From contig JANTHB010000001.1 in NCBI GenBank assembly GCA_024762655.1, positions 20,015-84,014 on the forward strand: DNA of 64,000 nt. The letters are read 5' to 3'. Under the pieces are notes generated by a model. That model was not told the origin of the DNA and made no database searches. It saw nothing but the letters and a program-made list of their open reading frames with translations. Of this stretch, positions 25,592-53,408 are shown piece by piece (position 1 is the stretch's first letter; each line of letters starts with the position of its first letter). Origin of the DNA: Bacteroidales bacterium. GTDB taxonomy: Bacteria > Bacteroidota > Bacteroidia > Bacteroidales > VadinHA17. The translations under genes were made by a program, and so were the position numbers.

Positions 25592-27406
25592 TCATTTGTT
25601 TCCTGTTGCTTTCTCAAGTTTTTTCATTATCAGAAAGATAAACCCTGCTGAGAGCAGGCTGGTAGTGACAAAGATTAGCCAAAGCTCCCATAGTTCGATC
25701 TTGTTCCATAGTGTGCTACCTATAAAAAGGAGTTTATTGCCTACAGCAGTGGCGAGTAGCCATCCTCCCTGCATGACTCCCTGAAAACGCATGGGTGCAA
25801 CTTTCGAGACAAAGGAAAGTCCCATGGGGCTCAGAAACAGTTCGGCAATGGTCATTACCAGGTAAGTGGACATGAGCCAGTAGGGGGTCACCCTGGATGA
25901 ATCGGGGACCGGTTTGTATTTTATGACCCCGGAGGCGTCCGTGATCTGGAGATCATGGGGTGAAACAAGATGAAGTGAAGCGATGACCATAATCAGGAAA
26001 CCCATAGCTGCGATGATCATGCCGATGCCTATCTTGCGGGGGGTGGAAGGCTCTTTTCCCCGTTCGCGAAGCCAGGAAAAAATACCTATTACCAGGAAGG
26101 TGAGCGCCACGATGAAAAGAGGATTAAAGCTTTGAAAAACTTCCGGGGCAATAGGGTTTTGCGGGGCTGCCTGGGTGTAGAAATAATAAGCAAAAGAACC
26201 GCCGCCGAGGGTGAAAAGAGCGCCGATCAGGCGCATGGTTCCGGTTCGTTTTTTACCCAGCAGAAGCACAAGGCCCGAAAGGAAGAAAATGACCGAGAGA
26301 ATATTTCTCAGAGTGAAAAAAAGATATGTGAAAGGCCCGACGGTTTTTACCGTATAATCACGGGCAAAGAAGGTAAGGGTAAGTCCGTTCTGATGAAAAG
26401 ACATCCAGAAAAAGATGACCACAAAGAATACCAACAAGAGGGAAACCACCCTTTCCCGCTCCTCTTTTTTAGCTAAGATAAAGATCCATGTCACGAATCC
26501 TACAAAGAGACCGATCGCCATACCTGTGGCGAAGTCTCTGACGAGGCTGATCAGGAAAGCTGCAAGGGCACCTGCTACGAGAGCCGCCGGAAGGGCTGCC
26601 GGTTTTTCACGGATGGTAATGGTCTTTTCACCCTTCTTTTTTTCCTTGTTGGGCAGGTGCTTGATAAAAAAGATATATACCAGCAGGGACAGCAACATAG
26701 CGCCGGCAGCTATCCCGAAAGCGTAGTTGTATCCACGGGAGAAGACCTCGAGATAGCTGGTGGCGAAATCATGAAGGTTGGACACCGTACCCCCCAGGTT
26801 GACTCCGTTGGCCAGAGACTGAAACGTGGTGACATCCTGGAGCGTACCGTCAAGATACTGATGACACAAGGCCGGCAGACTACCGTCATGCAGAAATCCA
26901 TTGGTTTTCAGCCACCAGTTGCGGACGCCCATGGCAGCAAAAGGTGCAAAGAATGCACCCACATTGATCCCCATATAAAAGATTAAAAAAGCATTGTCCC
27001 GGACCTTGTCATATTTCGGGTCGTCGTAAAGTTGTCCGACCACGGCCTGCAGGTTCCCCTTGAACAACCCGTTGCCAAAAGCGATGGTGAACAAACCTAT
27101 AATGGTGATGCTTAAAGATAAGCCGGGCATTGCCATAAGAAAATATCCGGCGAACATGATCACCTGTCCCATCATGATGATCAGCTTGTATTTTCTGCTT
27201 GCATCAGCGAGAATTCCTCCTACCAGAGCCAGTGCATAAATGGCAAAGTAGAACCAGCTGTATATACTGCCGGCCCTGTCCTCGGTAAGCCCGTATTTGG
27301 CCTGAAGAAACAAAACCAAAATAGCCATCATGGTATAGAAGCCGAACCGTTCTCCCATATTGGTGAAAAAAGCAACAAACAATCCTTTCGGGTGTCCTTT
27401 GAACAT
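25592..27406 (-). CDS. POT/PTR2-family di/tripeptide:proton symporter
   Basis: 604 aa polytopic protein. N-terminal PTR2 signature GHPKGLFVAFFTNMGERFGFYTMMAIL. Confidence 0.88.
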   Translation of the reverse strand: MFKGHPKGLFVAFFTNMGERFGFYTMMAILVLFLQAKYGLTEDRAGSIYSWFYFAIYALALVGGILADASRKYKLIIMMGQVIMFAGYFLMAMPGLSLSITIIGLFTIAFGNGLFKGNLQAVVGQLYDDPKYDKVRDNAFLIFYMGINVGAFFAPFAAMGVRNWWLKTNGFLHDGSLPALCHQYLDGTLQDVTTFQSLANGVNLGGTVSNLHDFATSYLEVFSRGYNYAFGIAAGAMLLSLLVYIFFIKHLPNKEKKKGEKTITIREKPAALPAALVAGALAAFLISLVRDFATGMAIGLFVGFVTWIFILAKKEERERVVSLLLVFFVVIFFWMSFHQNGLTLTFFARDYTVKTVGPFTYLFFTLRNILSVIFFLSGLVLLLGKKRTGTMRLIGALFTLGGGSFAYYFYTQAAPQNPIAPEVFQSFNPLFIVALTFLVIGIFSWLRERGKEPSTPRKIGIGMIIAAMGFLIMVIASLHLVSPHDLQITDASGVIKYKPVPDSSRVTPYWLMSTYLVMTIAELFLSPMGLSFVSKVAPMRFQGVMQGGWLLATAVGNKLLFIGSTLWNKIELWELWLIFVTTSLLSAGFIFLIMKKLEKATGNK

Positions 27407-31830: not shown

Positions 31831-33294
31831 ATGAGTAAAGAAATTTTAAATCTGGAACCGAAAGAAGTCTGGAAATATTTTTACGAACTGACGCAAATAC
31901 CGCGGCCTTCGAAGAAAGAGGGTAAGGTAATTGAGTTTATGAGAAAATTCGGAGAGGACCTGGGGCTGGAAACGATCGTAGACGAGGTTGGGAATGTAAT
32001 CATCCGCAAACCGGCTACCCCGGGTATGGAAAACAAAAAAGGAGTGATCCTGCAGGGACATTTGGATATGGTTCCCCAGAAAAACAGTGATGTGGCACAT
32101 GATTTTGAAAAGGACCCCATTGATGCTTATGTGGATGGAGAATGGGTGACGGCCAGAGGAACCACCCTGGGGGCTGATAATGGCATTGGCGTGGCGGCAG
32201 CCATGGCTGTGCTGGCCTCCAAAGATATTCAACACGGTCCTCTGGAAGCACTCTTTACCATAGATGAGGAAACGGGAATGACCGGAGCTTTCGGTCTGAA
32301 GCCCGGAATCCTCAAAGGAGAGATCCTGATCAACATGGACTCGGAAGATGAGGGAGAGCTGTATGTGGGTTGTGCCGGAGGCACCAACGCCAATCTTTCT
32401 TTCTCTTATCAGGAGGAAAAAGTCCCCGGCGATCATGTGGCTTATAAGGTTGTGCTGACAGGATTGAAAGGCGGACACTCCGGGGTTGATATTGCCATGG
32501 AACGTGGAAACGCCAATAAACTGATGAACAGAATTCTTTGGAACGCCGCCCGGGAATATGGACTGCGCGTGGCTGACGTGAAGGGGGGCGACCTGCGTAA
32601 TGCCATCCCCCGCGAAGCTTTTGCCATCGTAACCATTCCGTCTGACAAAGAAGAAGGTTTTGTGCGTTATGTGAAAGAAATGGAGAATGTGCTGGTCAAT
32701 GAATTGGGCTCGGTGGAACCGGACCTGAAGCTGGAGACCGAACGTACGGAGACTCCCGCCACGGTCATGGATGAGGTTTCCCAGGCAAAAATACTGGATG
32801 CTGTATATGTTAGTCCCCATGGAGTGATCCGGATGAGTACCGATATGGAAGGGCTCGTAGAAACATCCAACAATGTGTCGGTCGTAAAGATGGCCGACGG
32901 GACTTTCGAAGAGTTGTGCCTGTTACGCAGTTCGGTGGATACCGCCAAAGATGATTTGAAAAACGTTTTCTCTGCCATCGCCGACCTGGCAGGAGGGAAA
33001 ATTACCTTTGACGGGGAATACCCCGGATGGAAACCCAATATGAATTCGGAGATCCTCAAGGAGATGCAGGAGATCTATAATCATAAGTTCGGAAAAATAC
33101 CCGAGATCAAAGCGATTCATGCCGGATTGGAGTGCGGACTGCTGGGAGGCGTCTATCCGGGGCTGGATATGATCTCTTTCGGACCGACGATCAGGTATCC
33201 CCATTCGCCGGATGAAAAAGTAAATATCAAAACGGTTCAGAAATTCTGGGATTTCCTTTTAGAGACCCTGAAGAATATACCGGAGAAAAAATAA
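31831..33294 (+). CDS. pepD: Aminoacyl-histidine dipeptidase (M20C, cytosolic non-specific dipeptidase)
   Basis: 487 aa. PepD-typical N-terminus (LEPKEVWKYFYELTQIPRPS) and metal ligand blocks HLDMV, ADNGIG and DEETGMTGA. Confidence 0.92.
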   Translation: MSKEILNLEPKEVWKYFYELTQIPRPSKKEGKVIEFMRKFGEDLGLETIVDEVGNVIIRKPATPGMENKKGVILQGHLDMVPQKNSDVAHDFEKDPIDAYVDGEWVTARGTTLGADNGIGVAAAMAVLASKDIQHGPLEALFTIDEETGMTGAFGLKPGILKGEILINMDSEDEGELYVGCAGGTNANLSFSYQEEKVPGDHVAYKVVLTGLKGGHSGVDIAMERGNANKLMNRILWNAAREYGLRVADVKGGDLRNAIPREAFAIVTIPSDKEEGFVRYVKEMENVLVNELGSVEPDLKLETERTETPATVMDEVSQAKILDAVYVSPHGVIRMSTDMEGLVETSNNVSVVKMADGTFEELCLLRSSVDTAKDDLKNVFSAIADLAGGKITFDGEYPGWKPNMNSEILKEMQEIYNHKFGKIPEIKAIHAGLECGLLGGVYPGLDMISFGPTIRYPHSPDEKVNIKTVQKFWDFLLETLKNIPEKK

Positions 33295-33494: not shown

Positions 33495-34331
33495 ATGGAG
33501 ATGAAACGTTTAGCCAGGCTTTTTATCTTTTTCTTACCTGCTGTGTTGTTATTTGCCTGTCAAAAAGAAGATCTCTTTCAAAACGAGGATACTTTTTACA
33601 TAAATAAAGATCGTAAATTAAAAAGAAAACTTGTTTATTCTTCTTCAAAGGCTGAAGAACCGTATGCACGTACGGATTATTATTACGATCGTTTCGGGAA
33701 TCTGATAAAGGAGCTCATCACAGTTGATCCTGATCCGGTAACTTTTAAAAATATATTTATGTACGATCAAAAAGGAAGATTGTTGGAGAAAAGACATTAT
33801 GGTATTCCACAAGGAGCTTCATCCACAGGGCTCACGGAAGATAATCTGACCTTATATACCGTCTCTCATTATTCATACCCTGATGAAAATACAAAGGTTG
33901 AAACCATATATTTACTGGATGAATTTGAAGACAGTACGGTGTACGAATATGAAAACAATTTATTAATCAAGGAAACGCATTTCAAAAAGAGCGGTTCAGT
34001 ATTCTGGTACAAAACGTATACATATGATGAAGACGGAAATCTTATCCAGGATTATGAAGAGCCTGGCGGAACTAAAAATGTTTATACTTATAAGGATGGC
34101 CATATTGTCAGCATGAAAGACTATGTAAATGATTCTTTGAGGGTGGTCAATGATTATGTGTACCATAAAGAAGGGACACGATGGATTGTAGAAGTAAATT
34201 ATTCGGGTCCGTATGGGAATTTTATTTCTGAAAAGTCAACATATGAACATGGACTTCTTATTGAATATATAAAATACCATCCTACTTTCATAGGTGCTGA
34301 GTGGTTTTGTGCACGTTACGAGTATTATTAA
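33495..34331 (+). CDS. Hypothetical lipoprotein with YD/RHS-like repeats
   Basis: 278 aa. Lipobox (LLFAC) and repeated Y.YD..GNLI / YDQKGRLL motifs. The gene is visibly AT-rich relative to its neighbours. Confidence 0.45.
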   Translation: MEMKRLARLFIFFLPAVLLFACQKEDLFQNEDTFYINKDRKLKRKLVYSSSKAEEPYARTDYYYDRFGNLIKELITVDPDPVTFKNIFMYDQKGRLLEKRHYGIPQGASSTGLTEDNLTLYTVSHYSYPDENTKVETIYLLDEFEDSTVYEYENNLLIKETHFKKSGSVFWYKTYTYDEDGNLIQDYEEPGGTKNVYTYKDGHIVSMKDYVNDSLRVVNDYVYHKEGTRWIVEVNYSGPYGNFISEKSTYEHGLLIEYIKYHPTFIGAEWFCARYEYY

Positions 34332-34464: not shown

Positions 34465-36783
34465 ATGAAAAAAACGGTTCTTTTACCTGTTATGTTTATT
34501 CTGCTTCTTGGGGCGTCCGGAAGCTATGCACAGGATTCCGGATCGGTGAAAGTCACCAAAGAAGATTATGCCCGTGCTGAAAAGTTTTTGTCGGGAAACA
34601 CCTTTCCTCTTGTACATGGATACAGCATCCGGCCCGAGTGGATCAGCAGGGATTTTTTTTGGTACATGAAGGCAGTAGACGGCGGAACGGAATTTCTTCT
34701 GGTAAATGCCCGGAAAAAAACCAGCCAACGTGCATTTAATCATGAAAAACTGGCGGCTGCTCTCTCGGAAGCCACGGGAAAGGAATACAAACCGCTTGAA
34801 CTGCCTTTTTACAACCTCTCTTTTTCCCAGGATAGAAAACAAATCTCTTTTCGTGTAAAGGGTGAAGCCTATACGTGGAATATTCCGGATAACAGCCTTT
34901 CCAAAGGGGAGAAGGCGCCGCAAAACACCAGGCCTGAAAGAAATTCCGTAATATCTCCCGATGGAAAATATGCAGCATTTATCCGTGATTATAATCTGTG
35001 GGTCCGGGATCTGGCAACAGGGGAAGAAACCCGGTTGACAACCGATGGGGAGAAGGACTACGGTTATGCCACCGACAATGCAGGCTGGAAAAAAAGCGAC
35101 CGCCCGGTGTTGCTCTGGTCTCCCGACTCAAAGAAAATTGCTACTTTCCGGATGGATGAACGCGGAGTCGGGATGATGTATCTGGTTTCTACAAAAGCGG
35201 GACATCCCGAACTGGAAGCCTGGAGATATCCTTTGCCGGAGGATTCGGTCATTTTCCGTCTGCACCGTGTGATCATCACCCTGGATGGACCGCACGTGAT
35301 CAGGTTGAAGATGAGCCCCGATCAGCATCGCTCCACTGTAACGGATGATATTGCGGGAAGGGGCGGAAAGATGCTGGATGCGGAATGGAGCCCGGACGGA
35401 CGGCAGTTTGCATTCGTCTCCGTATCCAGGGATCATCATAAGGTTGTATTGCGGCTGGCCGATGCGGTAACCGGTGAGGTCAGGGATGTGCTCAGCGAGG
35501 AGTCCCCAACCTTTTTCGAGTCGGGATACAATGTTTTCAACTGGCGCTTTCTCCCGGAAAGTGGAGAGGTGATCTGGTACTCCCAGCGGGATGACTGGGG
35601 CCATCTTTATCTGTATGATCTTAAGACCGGCGCTTTGAAAAACAGAATCACTTCGGGAGCCTGGAACGTGCTGGAGGTCCGACGGATAGACCGGAAAAAA
35701 GGGAAGATCTATTTTCTTGGCAACGGACGGGAGCCTGGCGATCCTTATTTCAAATACCTGTACAGTGTGGGGATGGACGGCAGAGACCTGAAATTGCTGA
35801 CTCCCGACAGTGCCAACCATTCGGTCACTTTTTCTCCTTCCGGAAGATACTTTACCGACAGTTATTCCACACCGGTGGAACCTCCGGTAACCGTCCTGAG
35901 AACGAGTGAAGGAAAAAAAGTCCTGATACTGGAGAAGGCGGATATCAGGGAGTTACGGGCTGCCGGCTGGATGCCTCCTGTGCCGTTTATCGTGAAGGCC
36001 CGTGACGGGGTGACCGACCTGTATGGCTTAATGTTTAAGCCTGTGAACTTTGATCCTTCCGGAAAATACCCTGTTATCGATGCCATTTATCCGGGACCGC
36101 AGACCGGCAGCATTCGTGGCAGGAGCTTCCTGCCTGCCCGGGGGGACAAACAAGCCCTGGCGGAACTGGGATTCATTGTGGTTTCCATAGATGCCATGGG
36201 CACTCCCATGCGCTCCAAATCGTTCCATGCAGCCTATTACGGCAATATGGGCGATAACGGCTTGCCGGATCAGATCGCAGGAATACGGCAACTGGCTCAG
36301 AGATATTCATGGATAGATACGAACCGGGTAGGTATTTACGGACATTCCGGTGGCGGATATGCTGCTGCCGATGCGATCCTGAGGTATCCGGACTTTTTCA
36401 AGGTGGCGGTCAGCGAATCGGGAAATCATGACAACCGGATCTACGAAGACGACTGGGGAGAAAAATGGCAGGGTCTGTTGAAAGTGAACCCCGACGGGTC
36501 CACCAACTATGATAACCAGGCCAACCAGAATCTTGCTAAAAATCTGAAAGGCCATCTGCTCCTGGCACATGGCACCATGGACGATAATGTGCCGTTGAAT
36601 AATACCCTGATGCTGGTCAGGGCGTTGATCGCAGCCAACAAGGATTTCGACCTGATTCTCTTCCCGAACCGGCACCATGGCTATGGCCCTGATTCAAAGT
36701 ACATGATGCGGAGGAAATGGGATTATTTTGTCCGCTATCTTCTGGATACAGAACCCCCGAAAGAGTATGAGTTTGGTAAATGA
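34465..36783 (+). CDS. S9B-family dipeptidyl-peptidase IV-like serine peptidase
   Basis: 772 aa. Signal peptide, DPPIV-type beta-propeller N-region, and a C-terminal alpha/beta hydrolase with GHSGGGY (Ser), HGTMDDNV (Asp) and NRHHG (His). Confidence 0.88.
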   Translation: MKKTVLLPVMFILLLGASGSYAQDSGSVKVTKEDYARAEKFLSGNTFPLVHGYSIRPEWISRDFFWYMKAVDGGTEFLLVNARKKTSQRAFNHEKLAAALSEATGKEYKPLELPFYNLSFSQDRKQISFRVKGEAYTWNIPDNSLSKGEKAPQNTRPERNSVISPDGKYAAFIRDYNLWVRDLATGEETRLTTDGEKDYGYATDNAGWKKSDRPVLLWSPDSKKIATFRMDERGVGMMYLVSTKAGHPELEAWRYPLPEDSVIFRLHRVIITLDGPHVIRLKMSPDQHRSTVTDDIAGRGGKMLDAEWSPDGRQFAFVSVSRDHHKVVLRLADAVTGEVRDVLSEESPTFFESGYNVFNWRFLPESGEVIWYSQRDDWGHLYLYDLKTGALKNRITSGAWNVLEVRRIDRKKGKIYFLGNGREPGDPYFKYLYSVGMDGRDLKLLTPDSANHSVTFSPSGRYFTDSYSTPVEPPVTVLRTSEGKKVLILEKADIRELRAAGWMPPVPFIVKARDGVTDLYGLMFKPVNFDPSGKYPVIDAIYPGPQTGSIRGRSFLPARGDKQALAELGFIVVSIDAMGTPMRSKSFHAAYYGNMGDNGLPDQIAGIRQLAQRYSWIDTNRVGIYGHSGGGYAAADAILRYPDFFKVAVSESGNHDNRIYEDDWGEKWQGLLKVNPDGSTNYDNQANQNLAKNLKGHLLLAHGTMDDNVPLNNTLMLVRALIAANKDFDLILFPNRHHGYGPDSKYMMRRKWDYFVRYLLDTEPPKEYEFGK

Positions 36784-36933
36784 ATAAAAACGCAGGCAGG
36801 CAGCAGGATTTGGAATACCGGAATATTTTGAGTCACCCGGGCCCCTCTCTTCATGCAGTTGATGGCTGAGCCAGCCTCCCTGAATCCGTGTAATCCGTTT
36901 TTTTGTTTTCTTTGTGCTCAAATTTTTCCGGGG

Positions 36934-38127
36934 ATGATCACAAGAGGGCTTGTTTTGTTTCTTCTGGTTTTATGTACACAAAGTGTACAAGCTGCGTCTT
37001 ATCCTGAAGCACCAGACACTACCTCAGGGTATGCTCCTGTCCCCCATGCTTCGGATACGCTCGGTTTGCAGGACACCCTGCCTGAAGTGGTGCTGGCCAG
37101 AAAAGCCCAGGATATGTTTGAAAAACTGTTCAAATATGTTCCCGTGCCTTATCTGGGTTACTCTACCGAGACCAGCCTGACCTTCGGGATTATCAAATAC
37201 AATGCTTTTAAGTTCCATAATCGTCAGATTCCCGATTCCTTGATGCAACTGTCCAGTGTCTCTCTGTATGGCTTTTATACCCTGAAAAATCAGTATGAAA
37301 TTAAGCTGAAAGGAGATCTGATGTTCGGCCCGAACCGTTTTAATACGGTGTTTGAGTTTTCATACCGGGATTTTCCGACTTTATATTTCGGCGTGGGAAA
37401 TACTACCCGGGAAAATGACGGCATGCTGACCGACTTCAAAAATTTATTACTCAAACCGGGATTTAATTATAAGGTATATTCAAGGCATTATCTGGGGGTA
37501 GTTTATATCTTTAATAGCTTTTTCAGGGTTAATCCGGTTGTCAGTTCCGGGGAAGGGCCGGTTCTGAAAGAAAACGAAGGGGTTCAGGCCGGTTTGGGGA
37601 TTAAATATTTCAGAGAAGGCCGGGACAACAGATTGCGCGCAAAGAAAGGTTCCTATATTTATTTTTCCTACGACGGGTACACACATCTTCTCGGTAGTCA
37701 ATTTGATTACGGAAGTTTTACGGTGGATTTGCGAAAATATTATTCTCCTTTGCCGCAACTGACGTTGGCGGGTCAGTTGTATTCGGAGATCAAAACCGGG
37801 GAGGTGCCGGTACAATCGCTGGCCGTTGTAGGTGGCAAAAACAGGATGAGAGGCATCTACCGGGGACGTTTCCGTGATAAAACGATGGCCATGGCTCAAC
37901 TGGAAATGCGTTTTCCTCTTTTCGGTATTGTGGGAGGTACTGTTTTCGGAGGGATGGGACAGGTGGCGTCGCGGCCGGTGGATTTCAAAAGCAGCGGTTT
38001 CCATTATGCCGGGGGCGGGGGAGTAAGGATCTTCATCGACAGGGCCACCAGCTCGGTGCTGCGGATAGATGCAGGCTTTTCCAGGGAGGGATATACGCTG
38101 TTTTTCGGGTTTGGAGAAGCGTTTTAG
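36934..38127 (+). CDS. Omp85/BamA-type (surface antigen D15) outer-membrane beta-barrel protein
   Basis: The start is moved to the internal ATG, giving a signal peptide (MITRGLVLFLLVLCTQSVQA). Alternating beta-strand pattern with a C-terminal aromatic end ...FGFGEAF. Confidence 0.6.
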   Translation: MITRGLVLFLLVLCTQSVQAASYPEAPDTTSGYAPVPHASDTLGLQDTLPEVVLARKAQDMFEKLFKYVPVPYLGYSTETSLTFGIIKYNAFKFHNRQIPDSLMQLSSVSLYGFYTLKNQYEIKLKGDLMFGPNRFNTVFEFSYRDFPTLYFGVGNTTRENDGMLTDFKNLLLKPGFNYKVYSRHYLGVVYIFNSFFRVNPVVSSGEGPVLKENEGVQAGLGIKYFREGRDNRLRAKKGSYIYFSYDGYTHLLGSQFDYGSFTVDLRKYYSPLPQLTLAGQLYSEIKTGEVPVQSLAVVGGKNRMRGIYRGRFRDKTMAMAQLEMRFPLFGIVGGTVFGGMGQVASRPVDFKSSGFHYAGGGGVRIFIDRATSSVLRIDAGFSREGYTLFFGFGEAF

Positions 38128-38499: not shown

Positions 38500-39297
38500 A
38501 TGAAAGGTTTGATTTTCGATATTAAACGGTTTGCCGTGCATGACGGTCCCGGGATCCGGACGACCGTATTTTTTAAAGGCTGTCCGCTGCAATGCTGGTG
38601 GTGCCACAACCCGGAGGGGATACGGAAGGACGAGGAAGAGGTGGTGTCCGTTCATAAAATGGAAGGCAGGGATTTTCCGGTGAAAGAGACTGTTGGGCGT
38701 TGGATGGATACGGAAGAGGTCATGAATGAGATTGTCAGGGAGCGCGTATTTATGGAAGAATCGGGGGGAGGCGTGACCTTCTCGGGAGGAGAGCCCCTGG
38801 GACAGGTGGATTTTCTGGAAGATCTCCTGCTCGCCTGCAAAAGGGAAGGATTCCATACGGCAGTTGATACCACCGGATATACTTCCCGGAAGAACCTGAT
38901 GAAAATAATGGCGTTGACCGATATCTTTTTATATGACGTGAAACATATGGATGACCGCAGGCACTTGGCATATACCGGCGTATCCAACGGGAGGATCCTG
39001 GAAAACCTTACCTTCCTTGCTTCTCAGAACAAAAAGATAATGATCCGCTTGCCGGTACTCCCTGCCATGAATGATGATGATGAAAATATTGGACGGACCC
39101 TGCATTTTCTGAAGTCCCTCACACCTGCCATTGTGGAAGTGGACTTGTTGCCTTATCATGCCATGGCTACCCATAAATATGAAAAGTTCGGCATGGATTA
39201 CAAAATGTCCGGCATCCCCGAACCGGGAGCGGATGACCTGGAACGGATGAAAAAGAAATTTGAAAGGGCCGGTTTTCAAGTAAAGATCGGAGGATAA
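38500..39297 (+). CDS. Glycyl-radical enzyme activating protein (radical SAM), lacking auxiliary Fe-S cluster motifs
   Basis: 265 aa. N-terminal FDIKRFAVHDGPGIRTTVFFKGCPLQCWWCHNPE (CX3CX2C) and GGGVTFSGGEP SAM-binding block. There are only 4 Cys in the whole protein. Confidence 0.88.
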   Translation: MKGLIFDIKRFAVHDGPGIRTTVFFKGCPLQCWWCHNPEGIRKDEEEVVSVHKMEGRDFPVKETVGRWMDTEEVMNEIVRERVFMEESGGGVTFSGGEPLGQVDFLEDLLLACKREGFHTAVDTTGYTSRKNLMKIMALTDIFLYDVKHMDDRRHLAYTGVSNGRILENLTFLASQNKKIMIRLPVLPAMNDDDENIGRTLHFLKSLTPAIVEVDLLPYHAMATHKYEKFGMDYKMSGIPEPGADDLERMKKKFERAGFQVKIGG

Positions 39298-39400
39298 TGG
39301 GAACGGAGATCAAATATAAAATATCAATGAAAAAGGAGCATTAATTTGTATTGAAAATGTAAAGACAAGGCATGCCTTGTCTCCCAAAAAAAGAGAAATT

Positions 39401-41764
39401 ATGACATCACGTGTTGAAAAACTAAGAGAGCAGAGCCTGAATGCGGTCAACCGCATCTCGCCCGAGCGGGCCGTGCTGATCACGGAATTCTACAAGAGCC
39501 AGGATGCCCGGGGCCGGTCGGTCCCGGTGCAGCGGGCGCTGGCGCTGGATCATTTCCTCAGCCACAAGAAACTCTGGCTGGGAGAGGGAGAGATGATCGT
39601 AGGGGAGCGTGGGCCGGCACCTAAAGCTACGCCCACCTATCCCGAGATCACCCTTCACTCGCTGAAAGACCTGGAGATCCTCGACGCCAGACCCAAGGTG
39701 TCATTTAAGGTGGAGGAAGAAGTGTACCGGGTCTACCGCGAGGAGATCATTCCTTTCTGGAGAGGCCGCACCAACCGCGACCGGCTCATGACTGCGATGG
39801 ACAAGAGCTGGCTGAACGCATATCATGCCGGCGTGTTCACTGAGTTTCAGGAGCAAAGAGCGCCGGGACATACGGTGCTGGGAGATAAAATCTATCACAA
39901 AGGGTTGATAGATCTGCAGCAGGAAATACGCCGGCAGATCCGGGCGTTGGATTATTTCCATGACCCGGAAGCGCTGGATAAACGGGAAGAGCTGACGGCC
40001 ATGAGCCTGGCTGCCGGCGCCGTGATGCGCTTTGCAGGACGCTATGCTGATCTTTTACACGGGGAGGCCGCCCGTGAGAAAGACCCCTTACGGCGCCGCG
40101 AGCTCGAAGAGATGGAGGCCGTCTGCCGGTGGGTGCCGGCCCACGCTCCCCGCACCTTCCACGAGGCTTTGCAGTACTATTGGTTTGTTCATCTGGGGGT
40201 GGTGTCGGAGCTGAATCCATGGGACTCTTTCAACCCGGGCCGTCTCGACCAGCACCTGCTGCCTTTCTACCGCAAAGGACTGGAGGAAGGTTCCCTCACG
40301 GAAGAAAAAGCCCGGGAGTTGCTATCCTGCTTCTGGGTGAAGTTCAACAACCATCCCTCGCCGCCGAAAATAGGAGTGACGGCACAGGAGAGCAACACCT
40401 ATACCGACTTTACCCTGATCAACCTGGGCGGGGTTACGCCCGGCGGGGAGGATGCCGTCAATAAACTGACCTTCCTGATCCTGGATGTGATAGAAGAGAT
40501 GCGACTCCTGCAACCCTCCTCCATGATCCAGGTGAGCCGGAAAAACCCGGACCGGTTTATTCACCGGGCGCTGGATATTATCAAGACCGGTTTCGGACAA
40601 CCCTCTGTGTTCAATACCGATGCTATCGTGGCAGAACTGGTACGGCAGGGTAAGGACATTGAAGATGCCCGGAGAGGAGGCGCCAGTGGTTGTGTGGAAT
40701 CGGGGGCATTCGGGACCGAAGCCTATATCCTTACCGGATATTTTAATTTCAACAAAGTGCTGGAGGTAACCCTGCACGACGGGACGGACCCACGCAGCGG
40801 GAAAAAGATCGGACTGACGACCGGCGATCCGCGCGGGTTTAAGAGTTTTGAAGAACTGATGCAGGCCTTTGAGAAGCAGATGAATTATTTCCTTGACATA
40901 AAGATCAGAGGAAATAATATCATCGAAAGGATCAATGCCCGGTATCTGCCGGCGCCGTTTCTGTCTTTATTCATTGACGATTGCATTGCCAACGGCAGGG
41001 ACTACAACGCAGGCGGGGCCCGCTATAATACCAGCTACATCCAGGGGGTGGGGCTCGGAAGCATTACGGACAACCTCACCTCTTTGAAATACCATGTTTT
41101 TGATAAAAAAGATATTTCCATGTCTTCCATGCTGAATATGCTGGAAAAGAATTTTGACGGGTATGATGAGATCCGGCACGACCTGGTGTATATGACCCCT
41201 AAATTCGGGAACGATGACGACTATGCCGACGTGAAGGCACGGGAGGTCTTTGAGATATTTTTTGAAGCGGTGGACGGTAGGCCTTCTTCACGTGGCGGGA
41301 CGTTTCGCATCAACCTGTTGCCCACGACCAGTCATGTGTATTTCGGGTCGGTGATCGGTGCCATGCCCGACGGGCGAAAAGCCGGAGAACCTCTTTCGGA
41401 AGGCATCTCGCCGGTGCAGGGCGCCGACCGTCAGGGTCCGACATCTGTGATCAGATCGGTCTCAAAGATCGATCATTTGCGAACGGGAGGGACCCTGTTG
41501 AACCAGAAATTCTCACCGGAATTTTTCAGCGATCAGGATGCCAAACAAAAGCTGACTGCTTTAATTCGTTCTTATTTCCGGTTGGACGGTCATCATATCC
41601 AGTTCAACGTGGTACGTGCCGAGACCCTGCGGGATGCACAGAAACATCCTGAGAGATACCGCGACCTGATCGTACGCGTGGCCGGATACAGTGATTATTT
41701 TAATGATTTGGGAGTGGAACTGCAGAATGAGATTATAAAGAGAACGGAACATGAGGGGATGTAA
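39401..41764 (+). CDS. hypD: Glycyl radical enzyme, trans-4-hydroxy-L-proline dehydratase-like (PFL2/eliminase class)
   Basis: 787 aa from the ATG at 39401 (the ORF-track TTG at 39377 is less likely). Glycyl-radical motif RVAGYSDYF and thiyl/acid loop GGASGCVESGAFG. Long stretches match my recollection of C. difficile HypD (FTEFQEQRAPGHTV, YWFVHLGV, GRLDQHL, LLPTTSHVYFG, GGTLLNQKF, DGHHIQFNV). Confidence 0.7.
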   Translation: MTSRVEKLREQSLNAVNRISPERAVLITEFYKSQDARGRSVPVQRALALDHFLSHKKLWLGEGEMIVGERGPAPKATPTYPEITLHSLKDLEILDARPKVSFKVEEEVYRVYREEIIPFWRGRTNRDRLMTAMDKSWLNAYHAGVFTEFQEQRAPGHTVLGDKIYHKGLIDLQQEIRRQIRALDYFHDPEALDKREELTAMSLAAGAVMRFAGRYADLLHGEAAREKDPLRRRELEEMEAVCRWVPAHAPRTFHEALQYYWFVHLGVVSELNPWDSFNPGRLDQHLLPFYRKGLEEGSLTEEKARELLSCFWVKFNNHPSPPKIGVTAQESNTYTDFTLINLGGVTPGGEDAVNKLTFLILDVIEEMRLLQPSSMIQVSRKNPDRFIHRALDIIKTGFGQPSVFNTDAIVAELVRQGKDIEDARRGGASGCVESGAFGTEAYILTGYFNFNKVLEVTLHDGTDPRSGKKIGLTTGDPRGFKSFEELMQAFEKQMNYFLDIKIRGNNIIERINARYLPAPFLSLFIDDCIANGRDYNAGGARYNTSYIQGVGLGSITDNLTSLKYHVFDKKDISMSSMLNMLEKNFDGYDEIRHDLVYMTPKFGNDDDYADVKAREVFEIFFEAVDGRPSSRGGTFRINLLPTTSHVYFGSVIGAMPDGRKAGEPLSEGISPVQGADRQGPTSVIRSVSKIDHLRTGGTLLNQKFSPEFFSDQDAKQKLTALIRSYFRLDGHHIQFNVVRAETLRDAQKHPERYRDLIVRVAGYSDYFNDLGVELQNEIIKRTEHEGM

Positions 41765-42735: not shown

Positions 42736-42899
42736 TTCCGCTTGTACCTCTCCTTGAGGAGAGGTCAAAACTTTCGGTGAAAGTTTTGGGAGAGGTGAAA
42801 CAAAAAATTTCGGTTTTTGTACCTTTAGGTCAAAATAAAACGAGCGCCTGCCGATTGCCTGCCGGCAGGGTAGGCAGGGCAGGCAGGAAATACTCTGAT

Positions 42900-43000: not shown

Positions 43001-45340
43001 ATGAAAGTTGTAAAGCTGTTTTTTTTTCTGACCGTATTGATGCAGTTAAATGGTATCGCTCAATCTGCTGAAGATATCATTGTGTATAAAATTGGTTTGG
43101 GCGACTCCCAATATGGCTACCGTATTCCGTCCCTGGTGACTACCCGGGAAGGGACGCTGCTTGCCTTTGCGGAAAGAAGGGTAGGACTAGGGGATCATGC
43201 TCAAAATGATATTGTAGTTCGAAGGTCTGCCGATAACGGGAAAACATGGAGTTCTGTTCACGTAATTGCCGATTATGGGAAAAGCTCACTCAACGACCCT
43301 ATGGCCGTGGTACTCTCGTCCGGGCGCATCCTGCTGATCTTTCAGGAATATCCGTATGGTATCCATTCCCGTAACAGCGGCTGGATACAGATGGCGGATG
43401 AGGGATATGACGGTCCGCGCAACACCCACAGCTGGCTGACATCCAGCGATGATGACGGTCTGTCCTGGAGCCGGCCCCGGGAAATCACCGGCATGATCCG
43501 GCCCCACGACCGTATATCGGTGGGAAGTCCCGGTATCGGGATACAACTGAAAAGAGGGAAATTTGAAGGACGGATTGTTATCCCCCTTTATCTTACGAAA
43601 AAGATTGATGACAACAACCGGGTTTGGACCAATGCGGTAGCCTGGAGCGATGATGAAGGGAAAACATGGAAGATTAGCAATGATATGCACCGGGAAGGGC
43701 AGACCGGCTATGGCAATGAAGCCCAGGTAGCAGAACTGTCCGACGGTAGTGTTCTGTTTGTGGCCCGCAATCAGGGAGGACTCTACCGGCAGGTGTCGGT
43801 AAGCCGTGACGGTGGACGCACCTGGTCGCCTATGCGTCTTGATTTCGGACTGCCGGGAACTGCGTGTCAGGGATCATTGCTGGGCATTGACGCTCCTGAG
43901 AAAGAAGGTCGTCTGATACTACAGGCTTCTCCGGCCAATAAATATGCCCGGAATACCGGAACAATACGCATGAGTGATGATGAGGGTAAAAACTGGAAAT
44001 ACAGCCGCACCGTTACCCCTGCTTTTTTTGCCTATTCTTGTCTGACACAGCTTCAGAACGATCAGATCGGATTATTGTACGAAGCGGATCACTACCGTAC
44101 CATCCGCTTCAGGAAGTTCTCATTGGATTGGATCAGAAAAGGCGATGAGGAGACCAAACCAGCACCTTATTTGAGGATTCCCGTGATTGACCTGGACGGG
44201 GACAGATCGCGGCAGATAGTGGTGGATAAGGAAAAAGGACAATACCTGGGTCACCCCACCACGTTATTGCTGGAAGACGGGAAGACCATGCTGGTGGTCT
44301 ACCCGGAAGGACACGGCAGGGGACAGATCGTATACAAACGCAGTGCCGACGGAGGACGCACCTGGAGTGAAAGACTTCCTGTCCCGGCATCCTGGAAGAC
44401 CTCCAAAGAGGTACCTACCTTGTTCCGGACCATGGATAAATACGGGAAGAAGAGAATCCTTCTTTGGTCGGGATTGTACCCTGCACGGTTCTCTGTATCG
44501 GAAGATAACGGAGCTTCCTGGAGTGAGCTGGAACCCGCCGGCACCTGGGGCGGTATCGTGGTGATGGCTTGTATGACCCCCGTAAATACCGGGAAAGGAC
44601 ATTACATGGCTATGTTCCATGACGACATGAGATTCTTTACACGAAAGGGCCCCGAATGGTATAAAAATGATAAAAAAGACTTCAACAGTCGTATGTTTAC
44701 GTTGTATAAAACTTTTTCCGACGACGGGGGCCTGATCTGGACCTATCCTGAAGCCGTTGTTCAATCCAGGGAAATACACATTTGCGAGCCGGGTATTATC
44801 CGTTCACCGGATGGGACACAACTGGCGGTGCTATTGCGGGAAAACAGCCGCAGGGACCATTCACAGATCATTTTTTCCAATGATGAAGGAAAGAGCTGGA
44901 GCCGTCCCCGGCCGCTCCCCAACGAACTGACCGGCGACAGACATGTGCTGAAATATGCGCCGGACGGACGACTTGTGGTCGTTTTTCGGGATGTGAGCCC
45001 GGAAAGTTTTCATCGTGAGTTGATCGGGATGGCCAAAGAAAAACACGAATCCAATTACAGCAAGGTCGCGGAAGAAACAGGACTGGGCAGCCCGACGGAA
45101 GGAGACTGGGTCGCCTGGGTGGGGACCTATGACGACCTGGTACACGGTGGGAAAGGTGAGTACAGGATAAGATTAAAAGATAACAAGGTCGGATGGGATT
45201 GTGCCTATGCCGGACTGGAGTTGTTGCCTGACGGAACCTTTGTTACCACTACCTATGGACATTGGGAGAAGAATGAACAGCCTTATATTCTAAGTGTAAG
45301 GTTTAATTTGAAAGAGTTGGATGAGAGAAATGAGAAATGA
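43001..45340 (+). CDS. Secreted two-propeller BNR/Asp-box protein: N-terminal GH33 sialidase-like domain plus second BNR propeller
   Basis: 779 aa with a signal peptide. The N-half has the sialidase YRIPSL motif and Asp-boxes SADNGKTWS, SDDDGLSWS, SDDEGKTWK, SRDGGRTWS and SDDEGKNWK. The C-half has SADGGRTWS, SEDNGASWS, SDDGGLIWT and SNDEGKSWS but no RIP motif. Confidence 0.75.
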   Translation: MKVVKLFFFLTVLMQLNGIAQSAEDIIVYKIGLGDSQYGYRIPSLVTTREGTLLAFAERRVGLGDHAQNDIVVRRSADNGKTWSSVHVIADYGKSSLNDPMAVVLSSGRILLIFQEYPYGIHSRNSGWIQMADEGYDGPRNTHSWLTSSDDDGLSWSRPREITGMIRPHDRISVGSPGIGIQLKRGKFEGRIVIPLYLTKKIDDNNRVWTNAVAWSDDEGKTWKISNDMHREGQTGYGNEAQVAELSDGSVLFVARNQGGLYRQVSVSRDGGRTWSPMRLDFGLPGTACQGSLLGIDAPEKEGRLILQASPANKYARNTGTIRMSDDEGKNWKYSRTVTPAFFAYSCLTQLQNDQIGLLYEADHYRTIRFRKFSLDWIRKGDEETKPAPYLRIPVIDLDGDRSRQIVVDKEKGQYLGHPTTLLLEDGKTMLVVYPEGHGRGQIVYKRSADGGRTWSERLPVPASWKTSKEVPTLFRTMDKYGKKRILLWSGLYPARFSVSEDNGASWSELEPAGTWGGIVVMACMTPVNTGKGHYMAMFHDDMRFFTRKGPEWYKNDKKDFNSRMFTLYKTFSDDGGLIWTYPEAVVQSREIHICEPGIIRSPDGTQLAVLLRENSRRDHSQIIFSNDEGKSWSRPRPLPNELTGDRHVLKYAPDGRLVVVFRDVSPESFHRELIGMAKEKHESNYSKVAEETGLGSPTEGDWVAWVGTYDDLVHGGKGEYRIRLKDNKVGWDCAYAGLELLPDGTFVTTTYGHWEKNEQPYILSVRFNLKELDERNEK

Positions 45341-45591: not shown

Positions 45592-46266
45592 ATGGTAGAT
45601 ATTCTTGAAAAACTGACGATTGTTGTAAAACGGGGGAAAGCGGATAAGAATTCGCCTTATCCTCCGGATCTGAAAGGTCAGGACGGCGCTGATGAGCTTA
45701 CGGCCGAAGCCTTGAAAATGGGGTTTACGCCGGACGAAGTATTGCAAAAAGCGCTGGTCAAAGGGATGCACCTGATCGGTGAGGATTTTAGTGCCGGCAG
45801 GGCTTTTGTCCCGGAGATGCTGATGGCTGCCAAGGCTATGAAAGCAGCCATGAAGCATATCGAGCCTTTTTTTAAGTCCGGTTCGGTGAAACAAAAAGGT
45901 ACCGTAATCATGGGAACGGTGCAGGGAGACCTGCATGATATCGGGAAAAACCTGGTGGCCATGATGATCGAAGGAGCCGGTTGGAAAGTGGTCGACCTGG
46001 GTTCCGATACCTCTTTTGAAAAGTTCTTGGCTGCCCTTGAAGAATATCCGGACGCTATTGTAGGCATGTCCGCCCTGCTAACGACTACCATGGTCAACAT
46101 GAAAGGAATCACAGAAAAGATCAAGGAGGTGAGTCCGAAGACGATTGTGATGGTGGGCGGAGCGCCCCTTTCACAGGATTTCTGCACCCAGATCGGGGCC
46201 GATTTCTATTCGCCCGATCCTCAGGGAGCTACGGAGTACCTGGATGCTCTGGTGAAAAGTGCATAG
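45592..46266 (+). CDS. Methyltransferase-cognate corrinoid (B12-binding) protein
   Basis: 224 aa. Helical cap domain followed by a Rossmann B12-binding domain with DxHxxG (GDLHDIGKN), SALLTTT and GGAPL blocks. Confidence 0.85.
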   Translation: MVDILEKLTIVVKRGKADKNSPYPPDLKGQDGADELTAEALKMGFTPDEVLQKALVKGMHLIGEDFSAGRAFVPEMLMAAKAMKAAMKHIEPFFKSGSVKQKGTVIMGTVQGDLHDIGKNLVAMMIEGAGWKVVDLGSDTSFEKFLAALEEYPDAIVGMSALLTTTMVNMKGITEKIKEVSPKTIVMVGGAPLSQDFCTQIGADFYSPDPQGATEYLDALVKSA

Positions 46267-46437: not shown

Positions 46438-47931
46438 ATGAAAGATCATTTTACAGTACATCTGGAGCCTTTGGGAAAGAAGGTGGAGGTGCCGGAGGGA
46501 ACCCCTTTGAAAGACGTATTGTTTTCCTACGGGGTGGAATTTCCCTGTGGAGGAAAAGGGATCTGTGGCGGATGCCGGGTGAAGGTGTTGAAAGGGGATG
46601 TATCTTTCGATGAACGACACAGGAGCCTGCTGGAGAAACTAAATCTGGATTTTTCCTGGCGGCTGGCATGCCAGAGTTATGTTACAGGAGATGTTACTCT
46701 GGAAATCGGACAGTTCGACACATTTATCCTGGCCGATAGTTCTCCTTTTCTTTTTAAGCCGCAGGAAGGATATGGCATTGCCTTTGACCTGGGTACCACA
46801 ACCATGGTGACCCAACTGGTCAACCTGAAAACCGGAAAGGTAATAGGAGTGGAGACCGCTGTAAATCCGCAGGCACAACATGGGGCGGATGTGATCTCCC
46901 GCATCGAATATGCCGTGTTGCAGGATGGACAGGCAACGCTTACCCGCCTGGTACGTGAGAAATTTGCCACCATGATCCACCGCCTGATCAGGAAAGCCGG
47001 AGGTATAGCTCCGGAAAAAATTGTAGTGGTAGGCAACACAGTGATGCATCATCTTTTTTGCGGCAGGGATCTGACACCCATGGCCTCTTATCCTTTTGAA
47101 ACCCCGGAGGGGGGCGCTTGTCATTTTACACCGGAAGAACTGGGTTTAAAAACGGATGATCATACGGATATTGAATTTCTTCCGGTGCTGGGCAGTTTCG
47201 TAGGAAGCGATATCCTGGCGGGCATCCTGGCCACAGGCATGGCAGAGAGCAAGGATCCTTTAATTCTGGTGGACCTGGGGACAAATGGGGAGATCGTAGT
47301 GGGAAACAGAGACAGGATCCTATGTGCCTCGACGGCAGCAGGCCCTGCCTTTGAAGGTACCAATATCCATATGGGCATGCGTGCCACAACAGGGGCCATC
47401 TCCTCGGTGACAAGGTCAGAGGAGGCAATCAGGGTGCATATAATCGGCAATGAGAAAGCCCGGGGGATCTGCGGCAGCGGACTGATAGATGCCATTGCGG
47501 TCTTTCTGGAAACCGGTAAAATTGATATCGGCGGCAGGATCAAAGGAGAATCCGGCCGTATTGACCTCACACCCGAAGTTTTTCTTACCCAAAAAGATAT
47601 TCGTGAATTGCAGCTGGCCAAAGGGGCTGTGGCTTCAGGCATTCAAATCCTGAGGGAAACGCTGGGCTTTGCCCCGGAAGATATCCGGAATGTGTATGTG
47701 TCCGGTGCTTTCGGTAGCTTTATCAATCTCGAAAATACCCGCCGGATTGGTTTGCTGAAATATCCGGCGGATAAGATCATCAAGATGGGAAATACGGCCC
47801 TGCTGGGGGCAAAAATGTCACTTTTTGAAAATGGAGATAAGATACGTGACATCCTGCAGAAAACCATCCATCTGTCTCTGGAAACCAATCCTGATTTTCA
47901 GGATATTTTTGCAGAGAACATGATATTCTGA
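46438..47931 (+). CDS. RACo/RamA-type reductive activator of corrinoid enzymes (2Fe-2S ferredoxin domain + ASKHA/DUF4445 ATPase)
   Basis: 497 aa. N-terminal ferredoxin Cys pattern CGGKGICGGC...C, then an actin-fold ATPase body (GIAFDLGTTTMV, DLGTNGEIV). Confidence 0.8.
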   Translation: MKDHFTVHLEPLGKKVEVPEGTPLKDVLFSYGVEFPCGGKGICGGCRVKVLKGDVSFDERHRSLLEKLNLDFSWRLACQSYVTGDVTLEIGQFDTFILADSSPFLFKPQEGYGIAFDLGTTTMVTQLVNLKTGKVIGVETAVNPQAQHGADVISRIEYAVLQDGQATLTRLVREKFATMIHRLIRKAGGIAPEKIVVVGNTVMHHLFCGRDLTPMASYPFETPEGGACHFTPEELGLKTDDHTDIEFLPVLGSFVGSDILAGILATGMAESKDPLILVDLGTNGEIVVGNRDRILCASTAAGPAFEGTNIHMGMRATTGAISSVTRSEEAIRVHIIGNEKARGICGSGLIDAIAVFLETGKIDIGGRIKGESGRIDLTPEVFLTQKDIRELQLAKGAVASGIQILRETLGFAPEDIRNVYVSGAFGSFINLENTRRIGLLKYPADKIIKMGNTALLGAKMSLFENGDKIRDILQKTIHLSLETNPDFQDIFAENMIF

Positions 47932-48047: not shown

Positions 48048-49508
48048 TTATTTAGGCGTACCGGAGTCTTCCATAAGCAGCAAATCTATCCAGGATTCTT
48101 TTTTACGGCGGTGTTTTTTATAGCGTTCGTTCATGTATTTTTTAACTTTTTTATGAAACAACCAGCAGGTTTTCATACGCAAGTTTAGTGTTTGGGATAA
48201 CTGAGTGATGTTAATGGTTCGGCCTGTGCTTGTGATGATCAGTATATACAAGGCTTTTTCGATCGGAAAACGGAGGTGGTGAAAAATGGTCCCTGCGGTA
48301 ACTGATTCTTTGTAGTTGCAAATCTTGCATCTTCTGACAAAAGGTTCATCCACACTGTATTTAGTGCTCCCACATTTCTTACAGGTAAATCCCTTCCCCC
48401 ATTTCAGATTGGCCAGAAGTTTGTAGCACGCATCTTTGTTTGGAAAGAATTTTCTGAATTCGTTGTAGTCCAGGAGCTTCTGCATAACACGTGCTTCCGA
48501 GATTCCTTTCAGTTCTTCCGACAGTTTGATATTGTGTTTTTTCAACAGTTCATTCATCCGGCGTATTTCATGGGATTGTTGTTCTATCTGCTCTTTTTGC
48601 TGCAGGATCTCATCTCTTTGCCGGCGTATTTCTTTGGTACGGACAGCTACCTGCATTTGCAATAACTTTTTCTGTCTCCGTGTGATCAGGAGTCTTGCTT
48701 CGAAGTACAGAAAAACAACCAGAATGATCAGGGACAGAATGATGAATTTGAAAAGAAGGGTCTTGGTAAAAGGAGGGATGATATGAATGATCAATTCAGC
48801 GGGTACAGGATTCCATACCCCATCGCTGTTGGCTGCTTTTACCTTGAAAATATATTTTCCCCCGTCCAGGTTGGTGTAGGTTGCTTCGCGACGGTGTGCA
48901 TCGGTATATTGCCAGGTCTTATCAAAGTTCTCGAGCATATAAGCATACTTGTTTTTTTCAGGATATTCGAAATGCAATCCCGTGAACTCAATGGTAAATA
49001 CATTGTGTTTATAATTAAGGATGATCTCCCTGGTTTCGGAGATGGGTTTAGTGAGTATGGTTTTCCCCAGGATCTTTTGGTGTGGGAATACCGGTTTCTG
49101 AAAGATTCTCAGGCCTGTGATCATGCAGATCGGAGGGATGGGGTTGTCAACGATTTTGTACGGATGGAAGAGGTTAAAACCGTTGGTTCCGCCAAAAAAC
49201 ATCGTTCCGTCCACCCCCGTGAGAGAGGAATTTTCAAGAAATTCCTCATCCTGCAGACCGTCTTCCACATCAAATTTTTTTATACGTATGATTTTATGTG
49301 TAACGCTATCCCTTATGATCTCTGCAAGGCCTTTGTTTGTACTAACCCATAGATTTTTATCTTTATCCTCTTCGATGGATTTGATGAAATTGGAAGGCAG
49401 TCCGTCTTCAGTGGTAATGCGGGAAAATCCTTTTCGGGGAGAAATTAGTTTATTTAATAGGTATGGTTTGTTTCCCGTGATTAACAGGAATGGTTCTTTT
49501 CCCTTCGA
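48048..49508 (-). pseudogene. 5'-truncated Reg_prop/Y_Y_Y sensor fused via TM and coiled coil to an IS1595-type zinc-ribbon/HTH module
   Basis: The ORF-track CDS 48048-49268 starts at a GTG. The same frame stays open upstream to 49508 and encodes a propeller repeat (GLPSNFIKSIEEDKDKNLWVSTNKGLAEI) with no start codon. It runs into the 3' end of the upstream gene. The C-terminus KWGKGFTCKKCGS...RRCKICNYKESVTAGTIFHHLRFPIEKA matches the IS1595 transposase N-terminal pattern, but no DDE domain follows. Confidence 0.55.
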
Positions 49509-53075: not shown

Positions 53076-53408
53076 ATGAATCCTTTACTGGGAAATTTTT
53101 ATCACGCGTTGGGGGGGCAGGCGGCTGCCAGTGTTTATATTCCTTACAACAAAGTAAAGGACTGGGCGTGGGAGGTGTACTGGTTGACGGGAGGTTTTTT
53201 CTCCTGGATTCTGATGTCCTGGCTGGTCTCTCTGATTTTTGTTCCCGGCCTGCGGGAGTTGATGCACAGTGTCCCGTTGAATAATCTGATCTGGCCTTAT
53301 GTTTTTGGTGTGTTGTGGGGGATAGGAGGGCTTACCTTTGGTCTGACCATCCTGGTGGTATCCATTTTTAACATAGGAGCCGGGAATTACATTCAGCAAT
53401 TTGAATGA
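53076..53408 (+). pseudogene. rhaT: Truncated L-rhamnose:proton symporter (N-terminal ~90 of ~340 residues)
   Basis: The 110-aa ORF aligns by eye with the E. coli RhaT N-terminus (YHALGGQAAASVYIPYNKVKDWAWEVYWLTGG vs [32 protein letters not shown]; ...WGIGGLTFGLT vs WGIGNINYGLT). It then diverges and stops, overlapping the next gene start. Confidence 0.7.

Follow-up and report, generated by a model that had tools for sequence, protein, structure and literature searches.

A hydroxyproline dehydratase (HypD) operon of a Bacteroidales bacterium with a short activase predicted to work with a single [4Fe-4S] cluster

The DNA considered here is a stretch of 64,000 nucleotides (hereafter, the window) from contig JANTHB010000001.1 of a Bacteroidales bacterium (assembly GCA_024762655.1). 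The element in question is a two-gene operon on its forward strand, in which the open reading frame (ORF) of a radical S-adenosylmethionine (SAM) activase of 265 amino acids (aa) is followed by that of a glycyl radical enzyme of the HypD type. Counted from the ATG at 39401, the latter has 787 aa, its frame itself opening at a TTG at 39377. An earlier note on this DNA had described the pair as a HypD-like enzyme with a minimal activase, either a non-canonical pairing or a HypD relative of different specificity. The features of the operon are the following:

38500..39297, + strand: HypD-activating enzyme of the radical SAM type, in a short form that lacks the ferredoxin-like domain (ORF, Pfam, NCBIfam, AlphaFold2 (AF2), Foldseek)
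38581..38604, + strand: CX3CX2C radical-SAM [4Fe-4S] motif CPLQCWWC, with Cys28, Cys32 and Cys35 (translation; invariant in 57 homologues)
38617..38694, + strand: Cys-free stub of 26 residues, GIRKDEEEVVSVHKMEGRDFPVKETV, at the site of the 2x[4Fe-4S] ferredoxin domain, predicted beta-hairpin (alignment, AF2)
39401..41764, + strand: HypD glycyl radical enzyme, 787 aa (NF043068, 6VXC/6VXE match, Pfam)
40691..40699, + strand: Cys loop CVE, with Cys431 as thiyl radical site and Glu433 (aligns to Cys434-Val435-Glu436 of Clostridioides difficile HypD)
41675..41701, + strand: glycyl radical motif RVAGYSDYF, with Gly762 (aligns to Gly765 of C. difficile HypD)

The scans for sigma-70 promoters and for terminators around the operon gave no more hits than shuffled sequences, the promoter scan omitting the Bacteroidota type, and an Rfam scan of the operon found no match to a regulatory RNA.

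The HypD enzyme is among the most abundant glycyl radical enzymes of the human gut and is widespread in anaerobes (PMC6219649). The 787-aa protein of the window, whose ORF, like that of the activase, lies at the coordinates given in the earlier note, carries as reported there both the RVxG motif (RVAGYSDYF, residues 759–767) and the CXE motif (within GASGCVESGA), and Pfam recognizes in it the PFL-like and Gly_radical domains. It matches the HypD equivalog model NF043068 over positions 2–783 of 784 with 1225.5 bits (cutoff 1100), and the next specific models score far under their own cutoffs (sulfopropanediol dehydratase, 543; CutC, 480). In the PDB, it matches C. difficile HypD (6VXC/6VXE) with an E-value of 1e-302, 1009 bits and 53% identity over the full length. 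The roles of the HypD residues have been established by structure and mutagenesis in C. difficile, where Asp278, Asp339, and His160 form an acid/base network; Ser334, Tyr450, and Thr645 attend to the carboxylate; Phe340, Phe152, and Trp277 serve in packing; and Arg156 and Lys326 are also specific to HypD (Backman et al., PMC7077986). Fifteen catalytic or substrate residues (F152, R156, H160, W277, D278, K326, S334, D339, F340, C434, V435, E436, Y450, T645, and G765 in C. difficile numbering) were scored in a phmmer alignment to 6VXC, and all 15 are identical in the enzyme of the window. The full signature was also found in 80 of 85 related enzymes, two others differing only by a change of Val435 to Ile; the rest were two truncated proteins that match where residues are present and one locus mis-picked by the script. 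By every one of these sequence tests the enzyme is an ordinary HypD, predicted to dehydrate hydroxyproline (Hyp), and the different specificity entertained in the earlier note is not borne out. What sets it apart from the C. difficile system is its Bacteroidota host, the absence of an adjoining proC, and a partner activase without the ferredoxin-like domain.

The activase is the unusual member of the pair. Its only cysteines are Cys28, Cys32, and Cys35 of the CX3CX2C motif and Cys113, as the earlier note had counted, and Pfam assigns it to Radical_SAM and Fer4_12. Its best family model is the HypD activase NF043069 (T4HPD_activ_SAM; 319.3 bits), followed by TIGR02494 (PFLE_PFLC; 289.7 bits), CutD (246 bits), and TIGR02493 (PFLA; 218.6 bits). 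The score falls under the NF043069 cutoff of 425 because the match splits in two stretches (the larger covering positions 97–299) and the positions of the insert remain unmatched. The TIGR02494 score is above its cutoff (174.35), and the PFLA score under its own (231.75). The eight-Cys insert (two CX2CX2CX3C motifs) expected of TIGR02494 activases is not present: the spacer that separates CX3CX2C from GGGVTFSGGE is 54 residues long and Cys-free, vs. 90–91 residues and 8–9 Cys in canonical HypD activases. Aligned with these long forms, the protein is missing about 37 residues, among them every one of the eight auxiliary Cys, with the flanks (...PELMVR... and ...EVVGR...) retained. This agrees with the earlier note, which had reported no ferredoxin-like insert. 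The corresponding spacer of Escherichia coli PflA has about 34 residues, so that roughly 20 more are left in the activase of the window. In the AF2 model of the short activase (predicted local distance difference test, pLDDT, 94.9) this stub is a beta-hairpin with strands at 46–54 and 57–65, and the model of a long form (pLDDT 95.5) has a beta-alpha-beta-beta-alpha-beta ferredoxin fold at residues 47–102. According to these alignments and models, the protein is a HypD-type activase minus the ferredoxin core, the first and last strands of the domain persisting as the predicted hairpin.

Outside the insert, the activase is 46–53% identical to insert-bearing HypD activases, with which it also shares the place directly upstream of hypD and the passing of the TIGR02494 cutoff, a family that includes CutD, glycerol dehydratase activating enzyme (AE), HPAD-AE, and BssD. 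It differs from the canonical three-cluster form in that the Cys-free hairpin replaces the 2x[4Fe-4S] insert. The other relevant comparison is with the pyruvate formate-lyase activating enzyme (PFL-AE) of E. coli (PflA; 3C8F/3CB8), to our knowledge the only structurally characterized activase of a glycyl radical enzyme. With a Foldseek template-modelling (TM) score of 0.87/0.94 and a root-mean-square deviation of 2.6 Å against 3CB8, the model of the short activase is, like PFL-AE, a single-domain partial TIM-barrel radical SAM protein with one cluster and no auxiliary clusters. Both have DGPGIR, CX3CX2C-HN, GGE, D-T-x-G, and DxK, with 34–36% identity by structure alignment and 40% over the aligned core. 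Unlike PFL-AE, the protein has about 20 extra hairpin residues after the cluster loop, and its partner is an eliminase (HypD) instead of PFL; the fold match speaks to the mode of working and not to family membership. The domain 3CAN, an activase domain from Bacteroides vulgatus, was considered as a solved orthologue and discarded, being only 32% identical. Little or no variation is seen among 57 homologues, reaching down to about 50% identity, in CX3CX2C, DGPGIR, HN, GGE, D123/T124, D146/K148, R183, and H220, and these motifs align with the conserved core motifs of PFL-AE, which bind SAM and the glycine loop.

A sequencing or frameshift artefact hiding a longer activase frame with extra Cys, which the earlier note had raised as a caution, is ruled out: the frame is unbroken, the architecture is shared by 58 other loci, and the Logan assembly of SRR19843167 (5931 bp, possibly from the same sample as the window) is 100% identical to the locus.

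According to a 2026 review, only PFL-AE and the ribonucleotide reductase activating enzyme (RNR-AE) are devoid of the ferredoxin-like domain, whose structure and function are described as “not known” (PMC13450708), a statement that confirms the remark of the earlier note that the locus departs from the accepted picture of eliminase activases. No earlier description of an insert-less HypD activase was found in the literature, where a passing mention elsewhere is possible, and short HypD activases go unmentioned in the papers on HypD distribution (PMC6219649) and HypD structure (PMC7077986) and in a 2024 review of gut metalloenzymes. Thus, HypD belongs to a known family, and the short activase is an undescribed but widespread variant whose sequences are public and generically annotated: the homologues with names bear no label more specific than “glycyl-radical enzyme activating protein” or “pyruvate formate lyase activating enzyme.” For the activase of the window, the generic annotation and the score under the HypD-activase cutoff both follow from the roughly 37 missing residues.

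The distribution of the short form has been followed at several levels. In a search of 5.8 billion proteins, at least 120 homologues of the activase were retrieved, nearly all of about 265 aa and 48–92% identical, those with names coming from Bacteroidota (Bacteroidales, Prolixibacteraceae, Paludibacter). In the set of 80 genome loci with the closest HypD (64–73% identity), the activase has a 54-residue spacer with 0 or 1 Cys in 58, mostly in Bacteroidota; spacers of 56–57 residues occur in three, of 38–45 residues in another three, and the canonical 8–9-Cys insert in six, which are labelled Eubacteriales, Bathyarchaeota, Aminicenantes, and candidate division B38. Among the carriers of the short form are the cultured strains Prolixibacter denitrificans DSM 27267, Roseimarinus sediminis DSM 28824, and Bacteroidales bacterium 6E. 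Among the best 150 representatives of clusters at 50% identity, about 84 are short, about 50 are long with 7–10 Cys, and roughly a dozen have 4–6 Cys. This predominance of short forms in the nearest clusters indicates long-term purifying selection. Judged from these sequences, the activase form is a clade-wide, widespread variant and not the oddity of a single locus or an error.

The activase lies directly upstream of hypD in the window, in most of the 80 loci, and in the further loci L081, L083, L084, L086, and L090; when activases were found through their own similarity, a HypD-sized glycyl radical enzyme was again located downstream. Intermediate forms are part of this picture. Several of the 4–6-Cys activases carry a single CxxCxxC...CP motif in a spacer of 60–76 residues, and presumably hold one auxiliary cluster; others among the best 150 clusters are trimmed to PflA-like spacers of 33–42 residues. 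One 4-Cys activase (P0231, L084 6001–6786) lies directly upstream of an enzyme with the 15/15 HypD signature, and a 33-residue-spacer activase (P0234, L086 2894–3688) directly upstream of a HypD-signature enzyme with 14 positions visible before the contig end. Further activase variants are P0270, P0224, P0182, and P0163, and one variant bears an 84-residue Cys-free insert rich in Ser and Ala. HypD activases probably represent a natural deletion series acting on an unchanged HypD, with steps at a 90-residue insert with 8 Cys, 60–76 residues with 4–6 Cys, a 54-residue hairpin form with no auxiliary cluster, and a PflA-like length of 33–42 residues. Should the short forms act alone, the auxiliary clusters would not be needed to activate an eliminase-type glycyl radical enzyme, and their role would be modulatory. 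The weakly resolved neighbour-joining tree of HypD (see below) is consistent with one main loss of the insert plus independent reductions elsewhere.

On this evidence we consider it likely that the operon is a HypD operon whose activase derives from the three-cluster form by loss of the ferredoxin core and would work with one [4Fe-4S] cluster. In the proposed mechanism, the activase would descend from a canonical three-cluster HypD activase that lost about 37 residues and the eight auxiliary Cys. The remaining cluster, on Cys28, Cys32, and Cys35, would bind SAM as in PFL-AE and would receive its electron directly from a soluble donor, for example flavodoxin or ferredoxin; flavodoxin is the in vivo donor of the insert-less PFL-AE (PMC13450708). 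The 5'-deoxyadenosyl radical would take a hydrogen from Gly762 of HypD, Cys431 would then abstract one from C5 of hydroxyproline, and water would leave, aided by Asp275, His157, and Glu433, to give pyrroline-5-carboxylate (P5C). The steps in HypD are carried over from the C. difficile enzyme (PMC7077986), all of whose active-site residues are retained in the window. A separate ferredoxin gene standing in for the lost domain was also considered and rejected: the motif CxxCxxCxxxC occurs in none of the six frames of the 64 kb, no ferredoxin ORF lies near the operon, and there is no conserved flavodoxin or ferredoxin neighbour in the hypD loci of relatives. We infer that the short activase is active by itself.

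Several points weigh against this reading. With the C. difficile enzyme as root, the neighbour-joining tree of HypD groups the partners of the 54-type and of three shorter activases together with a bootstrap of 54%, a weak support for a single origin of the short form (the six partners of long activases form a separate group with 72%). In the neighbour-joining tree of the activases, built from short sequences without bootstraps and left unused for counting losses, short and long forms interleave. No biochemical account of any short HypD activase was found in the literature, and the loss of the domain might cost function or need compensation. As for the fate of P5C, neither proC nor a P5C dehydrogenase lies in the 64-kb window. 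Finally, the window is the only part of the genome in view, and a second, canonical activase could sit elsewhere.

This last point opens the way to a first alternative, namely that the short activase is degenerate or accessory and that HypD is activated by a canonical three-cluster activase or by a PflA encoded elsewhere. PFL-type glycyl radical enzymes are known to be cross-activated by non-cognate activases, which lends it some plausibility. However, the catalytic motifs are invariant across the 57 homologues, the fold is predicted confidently, the gene adjoins hypD in 58 of the 80 loci as well as in independently found contigs, and the dominance of short forms in the nearest clusters bespeaks purifying selection, so that we regard this explanation as improbable.

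An alternative for the origin of the operon is a recent horizontal acquisition, suggested by the earlier note from a visibly G+C-rich composition. That observation stood in part: hypD is mildly rich, with a G+C content (GC) of 0.544 (z = 1.6) and the highest G+C at third codon positions (GC3) of the 42 genes of the window (0.656, z = 2.0), but the activase is average (0.490, z = 0.3) and another gene of the window, at 0.548, lies above hypD. The codon-usage divergence of hypD (0.067) is modest, most genes of the window having about 0.04–0.07, and the high GC3 could equally well stem from the codon bias that goes with strong expression. No mobile-element genes flank the operon, whose neighbours are housekeeping or typical of Bacteroidota, and the closest relatives of both HypD and the activase are mostly Bacteroidota, as for a pair inherited across a large group. 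A recent transfer is unlikely on these grounds, and that part of the earlier note is not supported. The sole strong compositional outlier in the window is another ORF at 33495–34331 (+), which encodes a 278-aa lipoprotein-like product without Pfam match (GC 0.346, z = -3.0; GC3 0.313, z = -3.5; codon divergence 0.143) and, as a candidate for foreign DNA, outranks the hypD operon. By codon usage, a 757-aa ORF at 61632–63905 (-), also without Pfam match, deviates most of all genes of the window (divergence 0.174; G+C at first codon positions 0.64).

It has also to be considered that a PFL-AE-type activase was recruited to HypD by non-orthologous displacement, which would make the pairing non-canonical in the sense of the earlier note. 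Architecture and predicted fold do match PFL-AE, and the 40% identity to E. coli PflA is close under the 46–53% to long HypD activases. Nevertheless, the HypD-activase and PFLE_PFLC models beat PFLA by 70–100 bits despite the unmatched insert, PFLA stays under its own cutoff, the roughly 20 residues beyond PflA at the insert site match the outer strands of the ferredoxin domain in the alignment, and single-cluster 4-Cys intermediates adjoin HypD. A borrowed PFL-type activase is very unlikely in view of these scores and of the retained stub. Least probable of all is that the enzyme is a HypD paralogue for another substrate (an N-methyl-hydroxyproline dehydratase or a hydroxy-D-proline C–N lyase), which would explain the activase, given that the known enzymes acting on proline derivatives (HpyG, HpzG, and HplG; PMC13450708), present among the PDB matches as 8ID1, 8IOF, and 7VUA, reach 407–453 bits (glycerol dehydratase, 517) vs. 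1009 for HypD, whose equivalog cutoff is passed and whose substrate-binding residues are all identical.

If the operon works as proposed, with the short activase active by itself, several consequences would follow. The auxiliary clusters would be modulatory, affecting for example the choice of electron donor, the lifetime of the radical, or the economy of oxygen or iron. Since the short forms are natural deletion mutants under purifying selection, the role of the ferredoxin domain is directly testable on near-identical substrates, and the large, mostly Bacteroidota group would provide a compact and tractable activase with which a non-PFL activase could be seen bound to its enzyme for the first time in a structure. 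There is also a consequence for annotation, the NCBI HypD-activase equivalog leaving the short form of the window under its cutoff.

The context of the operon bears on the supply of hydroxyproline. The window is an ordinary Bacteroidota chromosome segment, with DnaK, RibBA, Fmt, PanB, LptF/G, and a subtilase with a C-terminal sorting domain of the type IX secretion system. The neighbours named by the earlier note (a POT transporter, a PepD-like M20 enzyme, and a DPP-IV/S9 peptidase) were all found by Pfam, and the genes of interest around the operon are:

34465..36783, + strand: DPP-IV-like S9 prolyl peptidase (Pfam DPPIV_N, Peptidase_S9)
36853..38127, + strand: Omp85-superfamily outer-membrane protein, between the S9 peptidase and the activase (Pfam Omp85)
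31831..33294, + strand: M20 (PepD-like) dipeptidase, context (Pfam Peptidase_M20, M20_dimer)
25592..27406, - strand: POT/PTR2 di/tripeptide transporter, context (Pfam PTR2)

The order S9 peptidase–activase–HypD recurs in L081 and L084, and the arrangement with Omp85 between the S9 peptidase and the activase is also found in L090. Near hypD in the 80 loci there are M24 Xaa-Pro peptidases (14), M3 peptidases (9), S37/S28 peptidases (9), S9 peptidases (6, plus L081 and L084), and proline-racemase-family proteins (7). The DPP-IV-like S9 peptidase likely supplies Xaa-Pro/Hyp peptides, to judge from its context, and we infer that the neighbouring peptidases and transporters supply Hyp-containing peptides. 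In two loci a GH127 beta-L-arabinofuranosidase lies directly downstream of hypD (L081 9270–11627 and L082 3515–5872), with a DPP-IV-like and an M24 peptidase on the upstream side. Hyp-linked arabinosides of plant glycoproteins are the substrates of characterized GH127 enzymes, and this association would tie hypD to plant sources of Hyp. The context fits a release of Hyp from collagen or from plant Hyp-rich glycoproteins, sources about which Huang et al. (PMC6219649) have speculated. The collagen-peptide scenario of the earlier note remains plausible in that peptidases specific for proline are found repeatedly beside hypD in relatives. Neither a prolidase nor proC was found in the window, as that note had already said of prolidase and P5C reductase; in Clostridiales, proC usually adjoins hypD (PMC6219649).

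Other observations concern the rest of the window. An Rfam whalefall-1 small RNA motif was detected at 42744–42797 (+) with 41.8 bits (gathering threshold 37; E = 1.4e-7), about 200 nt upstream of a BNR/sialidase-like gene (43001–45340). A corrinoid (B12-binding) protein at 45592–46266 (+), a RACo-type reductive activase with a 2Fe-2S domain at 46438–47931 (+), and a URO-D/MtaA-like methyltransferase at 53405–54508 (+) resemble, taken together, a system for corrinoid-dependent methyl transfer, for which no substrate methyltransferase of the MttB type was seen. At 1063–2934 (+) there is a 623-aa fusion of an N-terminal cyclic-nucleotide-binding domain with a class-II fumarase/aspartase (Lyase_1, FumaraseC_C). 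Finally, the window holds a rhamnosidase (49450–51921), a sulfatase (24074–25549), and, at 55629–57011 (+), an apiosidase-like glycoside hydrolase fused to a “putative collagen-binding domain of a collagenase” (PF12904).

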